This document shows positions 9,327-57,692 of a stretch of 64,000 bases of DNA, one piece after another. The stretch is taken from sequence record PZ445551.1. The stretch is one strand, 5' to 3'. The position numbers and the translations under genes were made by a program. The notes beneath the pieces are model-generated. The model saw only the letters and a program-made list of their open reading frames with translations, had not been told where the DNA came from and did no database searches. The stretch is from a phage. Position 1 is the first letter of the stretch. Each line of letters starts with the position of its first letter.

Positions 9327-11099
9327 TTAATAAGAACCAGCAGAAATATTTTCTGGGTTACTTGTGTATTGATCGTAATCGTGAAGTGTAGCTGTTTTAA
9401 TCTCATAGAAGAAACTACCTGCTGCACCAGTCTCTGAGAACTCACGGTTCTTTAGAATGTAGCAATATGTGCGGTTACGTTCCATAGGATCTTCAGCTTG
9501 TTTATCACGCTCCAGCGCAATTGTGATACCAGCACCTTTAGCAAGGAAGCTACTACCCATTGCATCATCTTCTACAATATGTTCATTACTATTGTTAGAA
9601 GACTTTTTAACGTGTGAAATTACAACAATGGTTATTGCATACTCTTTCATAATGCGTTTCAGCCACGTCGCAAGTTCCTCTTGTTGTGACACGTCCATAC
9701 CAGAAAGCAAATCAGAATAAGGGTCGATAACAAGAATGGTTACTCCGAAATAAATAATCATTTCCAGAACCTTCTCTTTAATCACATCTACGTTAGCTCC
9801 ACGATCATCACAAACATAGAAACGTGGTGTTCCATCTTCCCGTTCGTAAAAATCACGAATCTTTTCTTCATTATCTTTTAAAATCTTTTCCTTCTCTTCT
9901 TTCGTTTTACGGTGAAGAGGGATATGCAAGAATGAAGACAGTAAGTTACGAGAATACTTCTTATACGTTGCCTCCAAAGATAAAATACCAAGAGTATGTT
10001 CTGGGTGTGCAAGAATAATGTGTTTCGTAATCTCGTTAACCAACAGTGTCTTACCGATACTTGTTTTTGCAAGTATAACAGTAATTTCTTCTTCTACCAA
10101 GCCTCCACCTAACATATTAGAAGCAACACGCATGAATGGAGGAAGGGTAATCATTTTAGCTTCCAGGCATTCCAAGGCTGCTTCATACAGTACGTTAGAA
10201 GCGTAAACACCAGCAGGTGTGTATAGTTTAGCTTTGAAAAAGCGATCAATAAAATGATCAATTTTTCCTTCTACTAGTGCCTGGTTAGGATCTTTAACAT
10301 CAGTTAGTTCCATCACGTAAACTTTATTACGTGGTAAGATTTTAACACATTTCTCAACTGCTGCACGTCCAGCTTCATCATTATCCATACATAGAACAAT
10401 CTTTTTAAATTGATCTAAGAATTTATAACGATGTTGAAGCTGCTTATGCAGAGATGTTTCGCCACAAGTACCAGATACTACAGCAGGAACAGGATATTTA
10501 CCACCCTTGTTATAATCTTTTAGCATCTGTGTTGCAGCCAGCATATCGTGTTCACCACCAACGATTAGAATAGTACCGCTGTGGTTACGATATTTAAACT
10601 CCCCAAAAAGATCACAATCCTTTCCTGTTTCACCGATAGGATGTGAGAAATCTTTTGGATCGATACGTTGTTTATACCCAGCAATATTGTAATCTTTAGT
10701 TGTAGGGTATAGTGTTGAAATTACTTCGCCAGTAGCTTCATCGTACATATAGCGTACACCGAAAGGCTTAGAGATATCTTCACGAATACCGCGATAACCT
10801 TTTGGATTAGTTCCAGTGCTGGCTTTTAGTTTATCATGTACTTCTGGATTAAACTCACTACCCAAGATATCCTCCTCTTCAATTTCTTCGCCGTGTGCAT
10901 TTAACCATTTTTGATCAGGGATAGTAAAGCCACAAGAAAAACAATGTGCGCCTCGATGGTCTTCATCGGCATCTAAGCCATATACCATCAAATTGTTTTG
11001 TGATCGATCACGCCCTCCTTTCATACAACGAGGACACCCAGTATGTCCTTCTTGACTTAGATCAATGTTATACCCATATTTATTTACAACATAAGACAC
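9327..11099 (-). CDS. Bifunctional DNA primase-helicase (T7 gp4-like: zinc ribbon, TOPRIM, DnaB-type helicase)
   Basis: N-terminal Cys4 zinc motif (CPRC...CFSCGF), TOPRIM DxD (CMDNDEAG), Walker A AKTSIGKT; 590 aa. Confidence 0.9.
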   Translation of the reverse strand: MSYVVNKYGYNIDLSQEGHTGCPRCMKGGRDRSQNNLMVYGLDADEDHRGAHCFSCGFTIPDQKWLNAHGEEIEEEDILGSEFNPEVHDKLKASTGTNPKGYRGIREDISKPFGVRYMYDEATGEVISTLYPTTKDYNIAGYKQRIDPKDFSHPIGETGKDCDLFGEFKYRNHSGTILIVGGEHDMLAATQMLKDYNKGGKYPVPAVVSGTCGETSLHKQLQHRYKFLDQFKKIVLCMDNDEAGRAAVEKCVKILPRNKVYVMELTDVKDPNQALVEGKIDHFIDRFFKAKLYTPAGVYASNVLYEAALECLEAKMITLPPFMRVASNMLGGGLVEEEITVILAKTSIGKTLLVNEITKHIILAHPEHTLGILSLEATYKKYSRNLLSSFLHIPLHRKTKEEKEKILKDNEEKIRDFYEREDGTPRFYVCDDRGANVDVIKEKVLEMIIYFGVTILVIDPYSDLLSGMDVSQQEELATWLKRIMKEYAITIVVISHVKKSSNNSNEHIVEDDAMGSSFLAKGAGITIALERDKQAEDPMERNRTYCYILKNREFSETGAAGSFFYEIKTATLHDYDQYTSNPENISAGSY

Positions 11100-44378: not shown

Positions 44379-44596
44379 TATTTTGAAAATTTTTATTTTT
44401 ATAAAAAGGGGTGTGGGTTTCATGTACGGAAATTCACCCTCTGCACAGTATATCCAGAGTAAGTAGTATTCTATACCCTGTTAATAAAGTATTTAATTTG
44501 TTTGTTGGACTATGGTATCTGATCTTTAAAAGGCATACTATCTCTTAACTACTACTTATAACAGAACAGTAAAATCATTTTTATAAAAAGTACAAA

Positions 44597-44800
44597 ATTA
44601 TTTAAAGTTTTTACAGATTTTTGGGTACAAATTTTGAAAATGAAAAGTTCAAGTTTGGTCAAAATTATTTAAAGTTTTTGTACGTATTTCTATTCAGATT
44701 TTGAAAATGAAAACTTCAATTTTTTAAAAATTCCCCAGTTTATTTAAAGTTTTTTTGCCTTTTTCCGTAGAAAAATCAAAAATGAAAAGTTCAATTTCGT
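44597..44800. repeat. Three tandem direct repeats (about 65-75 bp units: TATTTAAAGTTTTT ... GAAAATGAAAAGTTCAA)
   Basis: Repeated unit read directly in an AT-rich non-coding stretch. Confidence 0.6.
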
Positions 44801-44817
44801 GTTTTTATAGGTGTGTT

Positions 44818-44928
44818 AATGAGAATCATTTTCGTTTGTAAATGAGAATCATTATCATTTAACTATGTAAGTGATAATCATTCTCAGTAAGAGAATGAGA
44901 ATCCTTAGCAAATGAGAATTTTCTCATT
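44818..44928. promoter_or_regulatory. Cluster of five AATGAGAATCATT / GATAATCATTCTC iteron-like sites (Fur-box-like), including the perfect 18-bp palindrome AATGAGAATTTTCTCATT
   Basis: Repeated half-sites resembling the GATAAT hexamer of the Fur box; non-coding. Confidence 0.45.
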
Positions 44929-45044
44929 TAGAGAATAACGCGCAGGGGTGGTGTTTGTCTCGCGCTCCCGTGTCCCCTCGCCATACAATAAGAATAGCAT
45001 AACCAACAACAAAAGCAAGCGATTATTTTTATCTTTACATTTCT

Positions 45045-45458
45045 TTACAAATTTATTTTAGACGAGCTACCGGCGATCAACCTTCCAACCAGTGCCCCCT
45101 GGTATGTTAGCCCCGCCTTTACGCCGTGGGGGTGGCGCTTCCTCTTCTGTATGTAAAACAGTATAAGCCCGATCCCTGGGCTTGTCAAGATTATTTTTTG
45201 TTTTCTTGCCAGGATAGGACACCTAACCAAAAATACATGTCGCCCCGCGCCCCCTGGTGGGATCTTGCTTTCCCCGCCGCCACTGCAAGCCCATAGATAA
45301 CCATTTGCGAACGTATCAAAATGATCTATTTCTTCCACCTTATGATCGCCCAGGTTGAGAACGGTTTCAACCTTTAAGCCCGTTGCGCTTGCTACCTGGT
45401 GCACCGTGCCGCCTTGCCAGCCTAATGAGTGCATGAGGTGTGAAGTAGTATTTGTCAT
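45045..45458 (-). CDS. Hypothetical ORF inside a GC-rich island (coding status uncertain)
   Basis: 137-aa ORF on the opposite strand from flanking genes; region is visibly GC-richer than its surroundings; no clear SD. Confidence 0.25.
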   Translation of the reverse strand: MTNTTSHLMHSLGWQGGTVHQVASATGLKVETVLNLGDHKVEEIDHFDTFANGYLWACSGGGESKIPPGGAGRHVFLVRCPILARKQKIILTSPGIGLILFYIQKRKRHPHGVKAGLTYQGALVGRLIAGSSSKINL

Positions 45459-45829
45459 GGTATCGCCCTTTCTTTGATGTGTGCCCTGGTTGGCGCGGTA
45501 GAAAGATAATAGCCCTTTCCTTTATAGATAGCAAGCAAAAAAGAAATGAAAAAAAGATTAAAAAAGGGGTTGACGTTCCTCACCTGGTAGCGTATTATTC
45601 ATCTTGTCGAGGGGGGCGAGGCACAACGACAATAAACAAAAGGAGGGCGCAATGTAGGACGGGCAAAGGTGAGGATCTCCACAATCCACCGTCACAATAA
45701 CATTACTTATAAAAGGTTGATAACGATGATCAAGAAAGAAAACAGCTTGACGGTTGGAACGATTAACGCTATCATTTTCGCCGTTCCATTTTGGGTTGTA
45801 GTAGCGGTTATTATCTTTTAAAAATATTC

Positions 45830-45887
45830 TTGACAACGTTTTTTAATCTGATAAGATGTATCACATAGGGCGGCAATAGTGCCGCTC
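45830..45887 (+). promoter_or_regulatory. sigma70-like promoter (TTGACA -35) + 5' GC stem-loop cassette
   Basis: TTGACA at 45830; stem-loop GGGCGGC-aatagt-GCCGCTC; ATG at 45910. Confidence 0.55.
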
Positions 45888-45909: not shown

Positions 45910-46182
45910 ATGGCATCATATAGCGCATCAATGATCGTAACGGGCATCACTGGTAAACCTATGCGCGGTGGCGGATCTTTCGCTAACATCAATATTGATG
46001 GGCGTTTATCCCTGGACGCAGCGATCACAGTGGCACGGGAAACGTTTAAAAAAGAATGTAATTTCAATAAACAAGATTATCTCGGTTTCGCTATTGAAAA
46101 AACCGCGCGCTTTGTTGATTATAAAAGCCCGAAAATGGTTGATACTACACTAAAAGCGCAAGATGTAGCATTTTTGCTTTAA
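45910..46182 (+). CDS. Hypothetical early protein
   Basis: 90-aa ORF behind a promoter/stem-loop cassette. Confidence 0.6.
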   Translation: MASYSASMIVTGITGKPMRGGGSFANINIDGRLSLDAAITVARETFKKECNFNKQDYLGFAIEKTARFVDYKSPKMVDTTLKAQDVAFLL

Positions 46183-47667: not shown

Positions 47668-47723
47668 TTGACATATGCAAACAAGCCCCGTAATATGTAC
47701 CACATAAAGCGGGGCAACGCCCC
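47668..47723 (+). promoter_or_regulatory. sigma70-like promoter (TTGACA...TAATAT) + GC stem-loop GGGGC-aac-GCCCC
   Basis: Boxes and stem-loop read directly. Confidence 0.5.
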
Positions 47724-47745
47724 ATAAGGTGAAATAAAAAATCAC

Positions 47746-47773
47746 TTGACACCTGAAATCAGTAAGCTATAAT
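47746..47773 (+). promoter_or_regulatory. Consensus sigma70 promoter (TTGACA-N16-TATAAT)
   Basis: Exact -35 and -10 hexamers with a 16-nt spacer, 37 nt upstream of ATG 47811. Confidence 0.65.
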
Positions 47774-47810
47774 GCTTATATAGATTGAAACATTACTAAG
47801 GAATAAAAGC

Positions 47811-47990
47811 ATGGCTATTATTGCAAAAACTGAGATCGTAGGTTTAGATTCTATCATCCTGGCATATGAGGAAGCTATAGAAATGTATGTAGTGACCTAT
47901 GGTGATTATGTGCGTGAATACGAATACATTGATCTTGCTTTCGAATGTTACATTCGCCAGGTCAATAAAGCCTATGATGATTATCGTTAA
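47811..47990 (+). CDS. Small hypothetical protein (59 aa, below the ORF-track threshold)
   Basis: ATG 47811 after SD AAGGAATAA; hand-translated to TAA at 47988-47990. Confidence 0.5.
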   Translation: MAIIAKTEIVGLDSIILAYEEAIEMYVVTYGDYVREYEYIDLAFECYIRQVNKAYDDYR

Positions 47991-55187: not shown

Positions 55188-55571
55188 ATGAGCAATATCA
55201 GCAACCTGGCGGCTACTGTAAACGGTAAAGATTTTAACGGCGCTGTAGATCGTGATCCTATGTGGTGCTTATCAGTGTTTAAAGGCGATCTGGTTGAAGT
55301 TAGAACAACCGAAGGGTATAGCGATGATTATAAATGCGAGATCCATTTACACAACTGGTACACGGGTAAAACTTATGCGCTGAATCATGCGTTTATCGGC
55401 AAGGTTGAATATAGAGAAATGATCGACGAAGAAACGGGGCAAGATTTTAGCGAGCATGTTTATATTCGTTCCGAGACATTAGCCGAACGTTTGATCGAGA
55501 AAATGAAAGCAAAAAATAAAATTAATTTATCTCATTGGATTGATATAACAAACGATCCAGCTTATCAGTAA
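55188..55571 (+). CDS. Hypothetical early protein
   Basis: 127-aa ORF; SD GAGGAATCACC. Confidence 0.6.
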   Translation: MSNISNLAATVNGKDFNGAVDRDPMWCLSVFKGDLVEVRTTEGYSDDYKCEIHLHNWYTGKTYALNHAFIGKVEYREMIDEETGQDFSEHVYIRSETLAERLIEKMKAKNKINLSHWIDITNDPAYQ

Positions 55572-55583
55572 ATAACATTTCAT

Positions 55584-55613
55584 ACCAGGGCGCACAAAGC
55601 GCCCTTTCTTTTT
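55584..55613 (+). terminator. Rho-independent terminator (AGGGCGC-acaaa-GCGCCCT + TTCTTTTT)
   Basis: Perfect stem with T-tract right after the 55188-55571 stop. Confidence 0.7.
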
Positions 55614-55817
55614 ACCTAAATAAAGATGATAGCTTTTACCTATCAAAAACGTTCACCGAAAAAAGTGAATAGATCGCGGTATCGAGCTAATCAAGGAGCA
55701 GATGAACAACCATACCATGAAGATCATAAGGCGCTTACAACGTGTTTTAGACCGCTTATTTTTAATTTCTCAATGTAACTATCTGGCAAAAACAGCCTTT
55801 TTCTTGTCTTTCCTCTT

Positions 55818-55893
55818 AAATGATAATCATTCTTATTTATAGCTGATTATTTATGCAATAAACTGAATAATGCAATAATGATAATCATTCTTA
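55818..55893. promoter_or_regulatory. Two Fur-box-like sites (AATGATAATCATTCTTA)
   Basis: Two copies, each matching most of the E. coli Fur consensus GATAATGATAATCATTATC. Confidence 0.45.
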
Positions 55894-56250
55894 ACTTATG
55901 ACCATCTAACCTATAAAATAATAAGTTATCTAACTAAATTAAAACTAATTATCTCACCTTTATTTATAACTTACTGTTACTATCTCATTGATAACCTTAT
56001 ATTAAACAACAATAACCAATATAAATCATTACTAAGCTAAATATAATCTATCTAACCTTTAAAACTATAACTATAATCTATCGAATTGTTGCACAAAGTA
56101 ACTATTAAATTGTTAGTAACATTACTAAATAATTAATATCCTATCTATTTATGATCTAATCTTTATCTTCCTATCTATTACCTAAATAATCATTTCATAC
56201 AGTAATCATTTCATACAATAATTATAACAAGAAATATAATTCGCAAGCGT

Positions 56251-56430
56251 ATCATTAGCAGCCTATGCCGGACACATAGGCGGCTAATAATAACGCAACT
56301 ACACACCCCACATAATAACCATCACCGATAGTTATTATTTGTGCTTATGTAGCTTGCAACAATTGCAAGCGCAACAATATACATGGTATATTGTATCCCT
56401 TACATTGTTGCGGTGCGTTATTATTAGCTA
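56251..56430. repeat. Large imperfect inverted repeat with nested palindromes (CCTATG/CATAGG; CTTGCAA-caa-TTGCAAG; GCTAATAATAACGCAAC / GTTGCG..GTTATTATTAGC)
   Basis: Inverted-repeat arms read directly in an AT-rich non-coding region; could form a cruciform or hairpin. Confidence 0.5.
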
Positions 56431-56756
56431 ATGTTTAGAACATTGGCTATAATATAAGCTAAGTAATAAGCTATGCAATAATAAACATGGTGAATAATGA
56501 CATTGATGATCATAATGCGCCACCTTCCAGGGGGCGCTATGTGAACACAAAGAAATCTTTCTTGTCAAGAAAAAATATTGCCATTATTGCGCAAAATTAT
56601 TTATATCTGAATAGATGATTTTTCATACTATTGCCCCATATAACATACCTCATTTGTTGAGCATAGTTATAGCCTATTTGTTGAGCCTACTTTCTTAAAA
56701 GCGCAATAAATCAGAATTATCTTGATTTTTAGTCTGTTTTATAGTATAGAAAGTAT

Positions 56757-56778
56757 GCAAATGATAATCATTATCAGC
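56757..56778. promoter_or_regulatory. Fur-box-like site containing AATGATAATCATTATC (16/16 match to consensus positions 4-19)
   Basis: Direct match to the canonical Fur box core. Confidence 0.5.
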
Positions 56779-56940
56779 TATCTTCCACGGGTAGCACTAT
56801 TTCACGCCAGATCATTTCATTTGGCAAGGTGTATATAGATGTTTAGACTTGCCAAGCCATTGATTTACTTAGAATTTATCTGTTTTGTTGTGAGTAGAGC
56901 CTTTCTTGCTCAGAAAATAATCAAAAGTCTTATAAGTCAT

Positions 56941-56976
56941 TGAATGATAATGCAAATGATAATTATTCTCATTGAT
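56941..56976. promoter_or_regulatory. Fur-box-like repeats (TGAATGATAATGCAAATGATAATTATTCTCATTGAT)
   Basis: Tandem GATAAT-type hexamers. Confidence 0.4.
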
Positions 56977-57332
56977 ATTTGAGGGGGACGGTCGGCAGAA
57001 ATCGGGGGGCGCTGAAAATCGCGTTAAGCACCTCTCGCAAGCGAGCAGTATTTTGCGGCAAGTTATTGATATTATTGGCTTTACGCTTATGAAAAGGGGG
57101 TGTGTCGAAATAAATCGGGTATACCGGAAAATTTTTGTGGCATAGATATTTATTTGTCTATATTATGTACAAAAGGGTGTGTTAAAAATATTAGGTATAT
57201 ATAGAATAATTGATAGGGAAATCCTATACTAATTCCTCCATTAATGATGTTTCTATGTTACTGTTCTTGTAACAGATGAAAAGACGCTGTATGATGTGTG
57301 GCATGAAACGTAAATTTATAAAGGAGTCTGAT

Positions 57333-57692
57333 ATGTGTGTTCCTCTTAGCAGTCCACTGCTGTTAGAATTTTACAAAGCATGGATGGAAGATCATTCCTC
57401 AATGCATCGTGAGAATGTTGGTTTGTGTAATTGCCTTATGGATTACCTGGCAACCACTATGTCAAAGAAAAAACCTACGGAAGAAGATATAGAATATTTC
57501 AAGATGGTTCGTAGCAAAACGCTGGAAGAGATGAAACTGCAATTCACGTGTGCTGGGCTATCCTCCTTTCTACCCTTTAATTATGATCTTCTGTGTTATG
57601 AAGATGAAGGTAAGACACATTCTTGCCATACCAACCCAAAGAGATTGCAGTGGGTGAAAGATCGTATTGCCGATTCATGCAAGGGTGTGTAG
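57333..57692 (+). CDS. Cys/His-rich small protein, paralog family member 1
   Basis: Start at ATG 57333 with SD AAGGAG; motifs LLEFYKAW, GLCNCL, QFTCAGL, PFN, RLQWVKDRI shared with three paralogs. Confidence 0.6.
   Translation: MCVPLSSPLLLEFYKAWMEDHSSMHRENVGLCNCLMDYLATTMSKKKPTEEDIEYFKMVRSKTLEEMKLQFTCAGLSSFLPFNYDLLCYEDEGKTHSCHTNPKRLQWVKDRIADSCKGV

Follow-up and report, generated by a model that had tools for sequence, protein, structure and literature searches.

A gene-free stretch of about 1.7 kb (55572–57275, 31.7% G+C) in the phage DNA record PZ445551.1 carries four sites, hereafter labelled A–D, that match the operator of Fur, the master iron sensor of the host, and two of them lie inside the direct terminal repeat (DTR) of the phage genome. 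The window, the whole stretch of 64,000 nucleotides that was analysed, corresponds to positions 80201–144200 of Escherichia phage VivaForever (PP925843.1), reverse-complemented, with 100% identity over 55500–57400. VivaForever has a genome of 146,096 bp and its close relatives are the Justusliebigvirus (phi92-like) phages of subfamily Stephanstirmvirinae; careful annotations place no genes in the gap. The occurrence of Fur-like sites in its terminal region is confirmed as a real observation, and from their sequence it is probable that host Fur binds them. More tentatively, at a little under even confidence, we favour the reading that the sites are true Fur·Fe2+ targets with a cis effect on the terminal untranslated region, in which iron status or Fur availability would, through them, open or close weak rightward promoters of non-coding or leader transcripts.

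Sites were scored by their mismatches to the 19-bp Fur consensus GATAATGATAATCATTATC, or as arrays of at least three GATAAT-type hexamers (Table 1). The preliminary description of this DNA had placed an exact 16/16 Fur core within 56757–56778, and the 16-mer AATGATAATCATTATC is indeed exact at 56760–56775, in site C; the near-consensus boxes that it gave at 55818–55834, 55877–55893 and 56941–56976 are all present, with coordinates correct within 1–3 bases. Site D is an array whose 19-mers starting at 56946, 56952 and 56958 have 5, 4 and 5 mismatches, respectively. All boxes share one orientation, which is that of every flanking gene. Five further boxes of the same family (cluster 1) occupy another gap free of open reading frames (ORFs). 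Four 19-mers with at most three mismatches were observed in the window, against 0.04 in dinucleotide shuffles (maximum 1), and the AT-rich gap alone has three positions with at most four mismatches against 0.05 expected, a count reached by 0 of 5,000 shuffles. Across the 146,096-bp genome the core AATGAKAATCATT, allowing one mismatch, occurs eight times, four times in this gap and four times at 44815–44909, so that all eight cores, and likewise every 19-mer with three mismatches or fewer, are confined to two ORF-free gaps that comprise 3.3 kb of non-coding DNA. Strong sites number 8–10 per genome.

Chance resemblance in low-complexity, AT-rich sequence without function is very improbable. The base composition of the gap speaks for it, and the exact 16-mer is found in IMG/VR at roughly its chance frequency, a count that is uninformative alone. 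The shuffles, however, are matched in composition, and the sites are kept across two subfamilies; the shuffles together with the whole-genome distribution of the core effectively refute this reading.

Relatives retain the sites. In four Phapecoctavirus genomes the gap shares only patches of approximately 70% identity with VivaForever, and each of these gaps has two or three sites with at most four mismatches, against approximately 0.015 expected (P ≤ 0.0005). The Phapecoctavirus boxes lie at the syntenic places A, C and D, and place A reads TGCAATGATAACCATTATC in all four genomes. A block of site D, ATAAGTCATTGAAT, is kept across genera, and the site differs between genera by a 6-bp indel, the length of one Fur hexamer. 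Cluster 1 is kept in phage ukendt, and its last box is kept in the Vequintavirinae PVP-SE1 and CB7, in the arrangement TTGAAT-box-CAGAAT/CGGAAT. Among 12 Justusliebigvirus genomes the boxes do not clearly exceed the remainder of the gap in conservation, a test that has little power because the whole gap is very conserved; the box substitutions within this set stay Fur-compatible, for example GATAAT to GAGAAT (T to G).

As a calibration we applied the same measure to the enterobactin cluster of Escherichia coli K-12, in which the operators of three well-established divergent Fur-controlled promoter regions score 6 (fepA-fes), 3/4 (fepD-entS) and 4/4 (fepB-entC) mismatches. With 2–5 mismatches, the phage sites therefore equal or surpass real operators. 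Site C with its flanks is 86–89% identical over 33–35 nt to the promoter of an FTR1-family iron-permease operon carried by approximately 840 E. coli plasmids of IncF type. Capture of a host promoter was considered and rejected; the likeness to host and plasmid promoters is limited to the box and a few flanking bases. No Fur homologue was found in the phage by tblastn (best E = 2.6). The Fur-box reading of the preliminary description thus stands as to sequence match, calibration, conservation and the lack of a phage Fur homologue, and binding itself is what we infer from them. Our literature search returned no report of Fur sites in lytic coliphages.

That the boxes are operators, iterons or packaging sites of a phage-encoded DNA-binding protein with Fur-like specificity is distinctly unlikely. 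Such a protein could be present among the early gene products, most of which have no recognisable domain (a Pfam search of the flanking early genes matched only Gp30.8, in the upstream gene). The likeness of the boxes also extends past the Fur core into their flanks, for example ATGCAAAT upstream and CATT downstream, and repeat arrays near terminase genes or origins are typical of phage-encoded binders. Set against these points, unrelated phage families that differ in gene set and G+C content have this consensus in common, the variation among sites falls exactly within the known degeneracy of Fur boxes, and the phage has no Fur homologue. A binder shared with phage T5, which carries boxes of the same family, was likewise rejected: VivaForever encodes no homologue of any T5 first-step-transfer protein, including A1 and the DNA-binding protein A2.

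The gap is a terminal untranslated region and not the ordinary intergenic spacer for which the preliminary description took it. The DTR, collapsed to a single copy in the assembly, was delimited by identity with the annotation of phi92, whose record lists DTR-L at 1–343 and DTR-R at 148270–148612; in direct reading, phi92 position 1 is window position 56684 and position 343 is 57026. For phage BME3, a 342-bp DTR was determined by PhageTerm (PMC12210895). The records of several relatives open exactly at the DTR boundary points. Both boundaries read GTTR/AGC (gttg/agcc on the left and gtta/agca on the right, the slash marking the boundary), and the boundary blocks are kept in Phapecoctavirus. 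Site C lies 73 bp inside the left boundary and site D ends 50 bp before the right one; being inside the DTR, both are therefore present at both DNA ends of every virion. Sites A and B lie approximately 800 bp to the left of the DTR, near the right physical end, and the early genes start 250 bp to the right of the left DTR copy.

Two further sequence features were noted at the DTR boundaries. A 13-bp repeat, ATTTGTTGAGCCT, occurs in approximately three copies at 56652–56689, straddling the left boundary. Spanning the right boundary, a 74-nt stretch (56973–57046) is 75.7% identical to unannotated E. coli DNA (L016, 2501–2574) located just 3′ of a gene for a 183-amino-acid serine recombinase in approximately 15 chromosomes. 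No conserved RNA fold was found, and the likeness might reflect a shared terminase or recombination site, or a satellite.

Nor are the boxes, which the preliminary description called unexpected in a virulent phage, peculiar to VivaForever: arrays of this box family occur in T5 and T5-like phages, in relatives of rV5 and in many uncultured phages. T5 (NC_005859) has 5–6 boxes (AAATGAGAATCATT[ATCATT]) at 9550–9720, inside the annotated injection stop signal and beside a DnaA box. The shear point of first-step transfer has been estimated at approximately 9618, and the function of this untranslated region has been unexplained for decades (10.1101/866236); that work makes no mention of Fur. In the T5-like Salmonella phage SP01 (L028, 4870–5080), at least seven boxes lie in the terminal repeat, adjoining DnaA boxes, in a region kept in 455 T5-like records. 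Neither VivaForever gap contains a DnaA box. Lacking these as well as A1 and A2, VivaForever is not filed as a member of the T5-type injection-stop class, with which it only shares box arrays.

Among uncultured phages, loci were fetched from IMG/VR by the exact 16-mer and then rescanned for arrays, and they are thus selected for having a box. Together with the two-box scan given below, this showed non-coding arrays of 3–13 boxes in contigs that are unrelated and range from 21% to 61% G+C (Table 1), including one with 13 boxes of 0–1 mismatch within 560 bp (L105) and two contigs, of 57% and 52% G+C, with 5–6 boxes each. In many cases a terminase gene, a contig end, DnaA boxes or a strong promoter is close by. 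Five of them lie 0.4–2.7 kb from terminase large-subunit genes of three families; DnaA boxes neighbour the arrays of three contigs (L091, L160 and L175), and in L091 boxes flank four DnaA boxes on both sides. In whole short contigs the arrays are nearer to the ends than a uniform distribution would place them (Kolmogorov–Smirnov P = 0.003), to which assembly breaks at repeats could contribute. A scan of IMG/VR for two boxes within 35 nt gave at least 120 matches, against roughly 1–10 by chance, the latter being a rough estimate that assumes 5 × 10^10 to 10^11 bases of ordinary composition; among the matches listed are a 61% G+C contig, contigs the size of T5, one of 90 kb with DnaA boxes and an rV5-like one of 146 kb. 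We found no description of such phage Fur-box arrays in the literature.

These arrays raise the possibility, which we hold at well below even confidence, that they form a general, previously overlooked module of the untranslated DNA at tailed-phage genome ends, often accompanied by DnaA boxes, which would load Fur, an abundant host protein, for a DNA transaction and not primarily for gene regulation. Such a module may cover phi92-like and T5-like terminal repeats and, in small phages, the DNA flanking terminase genes. The transaction that it controls may be the entry of DNA, which it would arrest or ratchet, the protection of ends or the cut made by terminase. Applied to VivaForever itself, the corresponding explanation is rather unlikely: Fur oligomers loaded onto the first and last DNA segments would act on DNA instead of transcription, whether as the genome enters the cell, in protecting its ends, in forming circles or concatemers, at an origin or when terminase cuts at the repeat boundaries. 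It would account for the short distances of sites C and D from the cut sites, a layout kept in Phapecoctavirus, and for the T5 boxes around the shear point and the widely kept SP01 array; the arrays near terminase genes, the contig-end bias and the neighbouring DnaA boxes also speak for it. On this view the promoter-like hexamers described below would be a by-product of the likeness between Fur hexamers (GATAAT) and −10 elements. Cluster 1, however, is 12 kb from the termini and sites A and B are outside the DTR, VivaForever has no DnaA boxes in either gap, and the weight of the uncultured phages is reduced by the selection of loci for their boxes and the possible assembly origin of the end bias. 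We know of no role of Fur in DNA transactions of this kind.

The reading that we favour, gating of transcription, draws on promoter-like elements at three of the four sites. Site B overlaps a putative extended −10 element, TGCAATAAT, at 55871–55879, which is invariant in 12 Justusliebigvirus genomes, and Phapecoctavirus has a perfect TATAAT 3 nt further upstream at this place. A putative weak promoter, TTATCT-17-TATAGT (56717–56745, score 7.2), would put site C at approximately +5 to +24. At site D the array takes up the spacer of TTGAAT-18-TATTCT (56940–56969, score 8.1); the TTGAAT and the 8 bases upstream are kept across genera, and the hexamer indel puts CATTCT at the same 18 bp (xATTCT). 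The same arrangement, TTGAAT-18-(C/G)AGAAT with a Fur box as the spacer, occurs beside cluster 1 and is kept even in PVP-SE1 and CB7.

In the proposed mechanism, sites B, C and D would each overlie a weak rightward σ70-type promoter, with site B covering the extended −10 element and the predicted start, site C the initially transcribed region and site D the −35/−10 spacer. In an iron-replete cell, Fur dimers would occlude these promoters and keep non-coding or leader transcription off. When iron is scarce, or when the Fur pool is titrated by replicating phage DNA, the promoters would open; one transcript would run from site B through a G-poor tract into a structured element (both described below), and others would start at sites C and D, leave the terminal repeat and head for the early genes.

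Several observations weigh against this mechanism. The promoter hexamers are no better than background, since scores of 7–8 arise approximately 9.5 times per kb in coding DNA, and a consensus promoter scan gave no excess. Several of the −10 candidates differ in their bases between genera, and cluster 1 has five boxes and at most one plausible promoter. The well-annotated T5 record lists no promoter in the injection-stop region, and in other phages the boxes lie between promoters or far from any. A lytic phage has no obvious gain from repressing early-region promoters in iron-replete cells. Our literature search found no binding, transcript or iron-response data for these phages, including no Stephanstirmvirinae transcriptome. 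It is because T5 and the terminase-proximal arrays have their boxes away from evident promoters that a DNA-level role at genome ends stays alive as a rival.

Another rival attributes the boxes to titration. As a sponge, they would soak up Fur and derepress the iron-starvation regulon of the host (iron uptake, suf, nrdHIEF, RyhB) to the benefit of the phage's own iron-dependent ribonucleotide reductases, or else keep released Fur off AT-rich phage coding DNA; we consider either purpose unlikely. The number of strong sites per genome, multiplied by replication, is comparable to the cellular Fur pool, and multicopy boxes derepress Fur targets in the FURTA assay. VivaForever encodes class I and class III ribonucleotide reductases, arrays of 5–13 boxes (as in L105) exceed what an operator needs, and arrays occur in genomes of widely differing G+C content. 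By contrast, synteny, single orientation and location in the terminal repeat are all conserved and none of them is needed by a sink. T5 degrades host DNA early, and derepression of host genes therefore cannot be the purpose there. Titration of Fur would in any case be a side effect of high-affinity sites in multiple copies.

Downstream of the boxes, a promoter-like element at 57170–57210 (Table 1) is, judged by its sequence, the best candidate for a constitutive early promoter of the genes with starts at 57276/57334. The right flank of the gap opens a long series of small, rightward genes of early type. The motif AAAAGGGGTGTG has only three copies in the non-coding DNA of the 146-kb genome, at 44406, 57095 and 57173 on the + strand, and each is upstream of an early-gene block; the two copies to the right of the DTR are kept in Phapecoctavirus, before −10-like hexamers. 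Near-consensus σ70-like sites (TTGACG/TTGACA-16/17-TATTAT/TATCAT/TAAGAT) are also present at 45570–45598, 45747–45775 and 45830–45857, ahead of the early block that starts near 46000.

Table 1 Features of the terminal region and cluster 1 of VivaForever (window coordinates) and Fur-box arrays in IMG/VR contigs (contig coordinates).
Feature	Position	Strand	Description
Gene to the left of the gap			homologue of phi92 gp248, Gp30.8-family protein (Pfam)
Terminator	55587–55605		after the gp248 homologue
Fur-like site A	55816–55834	+	TTAAATGATAATCATTCTT; 5 mismatches; exact 13-mer AATGATAATCATT at 55819–55831
Fur-like site B	55874–55892	+	AATAATGATAATCATTCTT; 3 mismatches; exact 13-mer AATGATAATCATT at 55877–55889
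G-depleted tract	55893–56235	+	343 nt, 4.1% G; starts directly after site B
Multi-stem element	56261–56428	+	46 predicted pairs; conserved
DTR	56684–57026		343 bp; single copy in assembly
Fur-like site C	56757–56775	+	GCAAATGATAATCATTATC; 2 mismatches; contains exact 16-mer AATGATAATCATTATC
Fur-like site D	56941–56976	+	overlapping hexamer array GAATGATAATGCAAATGATAATTATTCTCATTGAT
Promoter-like element	57170–57210	+	AAAAGGGTGTG then TTAAAA-17-AATAAT; in Phapecoctavirus as GGGGTGTCAAAAATAATCGGTATATATGGGATAAT
Cluster 1	44815–44930	+	five same-family boxes, located in the second ORF-free gap
Array in L105	10762–11325		non-coding, 3–13 boxes (this and all following rows)
Array in L133	623–903		
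Array in L088	4839–5118		
Array in L019	5711–5943		
Array in L100	4777–4996		
Array in L091	1195–1472		
Array in L167	10417–10585		
Array in L160	1368–1430		
Array in L199	1967–2010		

The gap holds two further non-coding features. The tract that follows site B is the strongest depletion of G in the window: its G-poorest 300 nt have 11 G, where 300 nt of the window average 54 ± 11 and the next-poorest have 27; the corresponding stretch of Phapecoctavirus is rich in A and C. A non-coding transcript may have its 5′ part in the VivaForever tract, whose composition could suit an RNA leader that loads Rho or binds Hfq, or a DNA unwinding element. In the multi-stem element, seven pairs are changed on both sides between Justusliebigvirus and Phapecoctavirus, and one C-G/U-G pair favours the + strand; the element is a candidate for a structured phage RNA of a new kind, or else possibly for a structure in DNA. 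Rfam searches of both gaps with gathering-free thresholds returned noise only, the multi-stem element matching no family, and no tRNAs were found. A Fur-controlled small RNA after site D was rejected, as the stretch there (−2.3 kcal/mol), with its hairpin and T-run, does not keep a fold in common with Phapecoctavirus or with the E. coli look-alike. The multi-stem element lies 370 nt downstream of site B, and we do not assign a Fur-regulated small RNA of RyhB/PrrF type to the gap.

The gap that holds cluster 1 has features of its own. Adjoining the cluster is a GC-rich non-coding block (44936–45200), kept in 259 phage records, including those of Vequintavirinae (PVP-SE1, CB7, GAP31 and Klebsiella phages). 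It has no Rfam or tRNA match, and assignment of its strand from folding was abandoned, both strands folding equally well; a strong leftward promoter-like site, TTGACA-17-TATACT (45188–45160), flanks it. To the left of cluster 1, a 67-bp tandem repeat with ATTTAAAGTTTTT motifs occurs in 2–3 copies at 44593–44723 (to approximately 44800). These repeats, resembled by others in phage ukendt, may be iterons or promoter repeats. Elsewhere in the window, 47713–47811 weakly matches the Rfam family RT-17, below threshold (27.4 bits, gathering threshold 40.4; E = 0.11).

Should Fur act at these sites, a lytic phage would sense the iron status of its host, or exploit it, through the first of its DNA to enter the cell. 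This would matter for phage therapy because infection sites are iron-starved and laboratory media are not. The decades-old puzzle of T5 injection stop would become open to a simple experiment. The wider pattern suggests a host factor for the biology of phage DNA ends that has apparently been unexamined so far, and phages may routinely recruit Fur at their genome ends.

Compared with known systems, the phage sites are closest to the enterobacterial Fur operators (iucA, fepA-fes, fepB-entC and the plasmid FTR1 permease), with which they share the 19-bp consensus and the architecture of hexamer arrays. Site C is nearly the entC box AAATGATAATCATTATT and the plasmid permease box, and GAGAAT variants of the phage boxes match the aerobactin operator. 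Unlike these operators, the phage boxes are on a virulent phage and away from iron genes, two of them are in a terminal repeat, up to five stand in a row and their overlap with promoters is weakly supported. Host Fur boxes on phage genomes have a precedent in temperate phages. The stx1 promoter of phage H-19B carries one, and temperate lambdoid phages have one before their sitABCD morons (PMC6969025), the latter being the only phage-borne Fur box that our literature search returned. The temperate case is a single box serving a cargo gene that benefits the lysogen, whereas VivaForever has arrays in untranslated core regions of a lytic genome with no cargo gene.

As opposed to temperate phages, lytic cyanophages offer a parallel for the use of a host nutrient-sensing transcription factor by a virulent phage to read the state of its host, as proposed here for VivaForever: they carry boxes of host nutrient regulators (PhoB pho boxes and NtcA sites). 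Those boxes precede identifiable auxiliary metabolic or early genes and, unlike the boxes of VivaForever, have neither arrays nor a link to genome ends. The T5 injection-stop region shares with VivaForever the box arrays in highly conserved, untranslated terminal-repeat DNA of a virulent coliphage, but the T5 repeat is 10 kb long, its DNA enters in two steps, and eight DnaA boxes and further repeat families are present, where VivaForever has a 343-bp repeat with neither DnaA boxes nor A1/A2 homologues. At the lambda packaging site, cosB uses sites for IHF, a host architectural protein; as in VivaForever, host-protein sites lie tens of bp from terminase cut sites, and the protein differs. To our knowledge there is as yet no evidence that Fur bends or organises DNA for terminase. 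Host-regulator operators on phage DNA are thus already known; what is new is the presence of Fur-type boxes in a terminal repeat, conserved over subfamilies and paralleled in T5.

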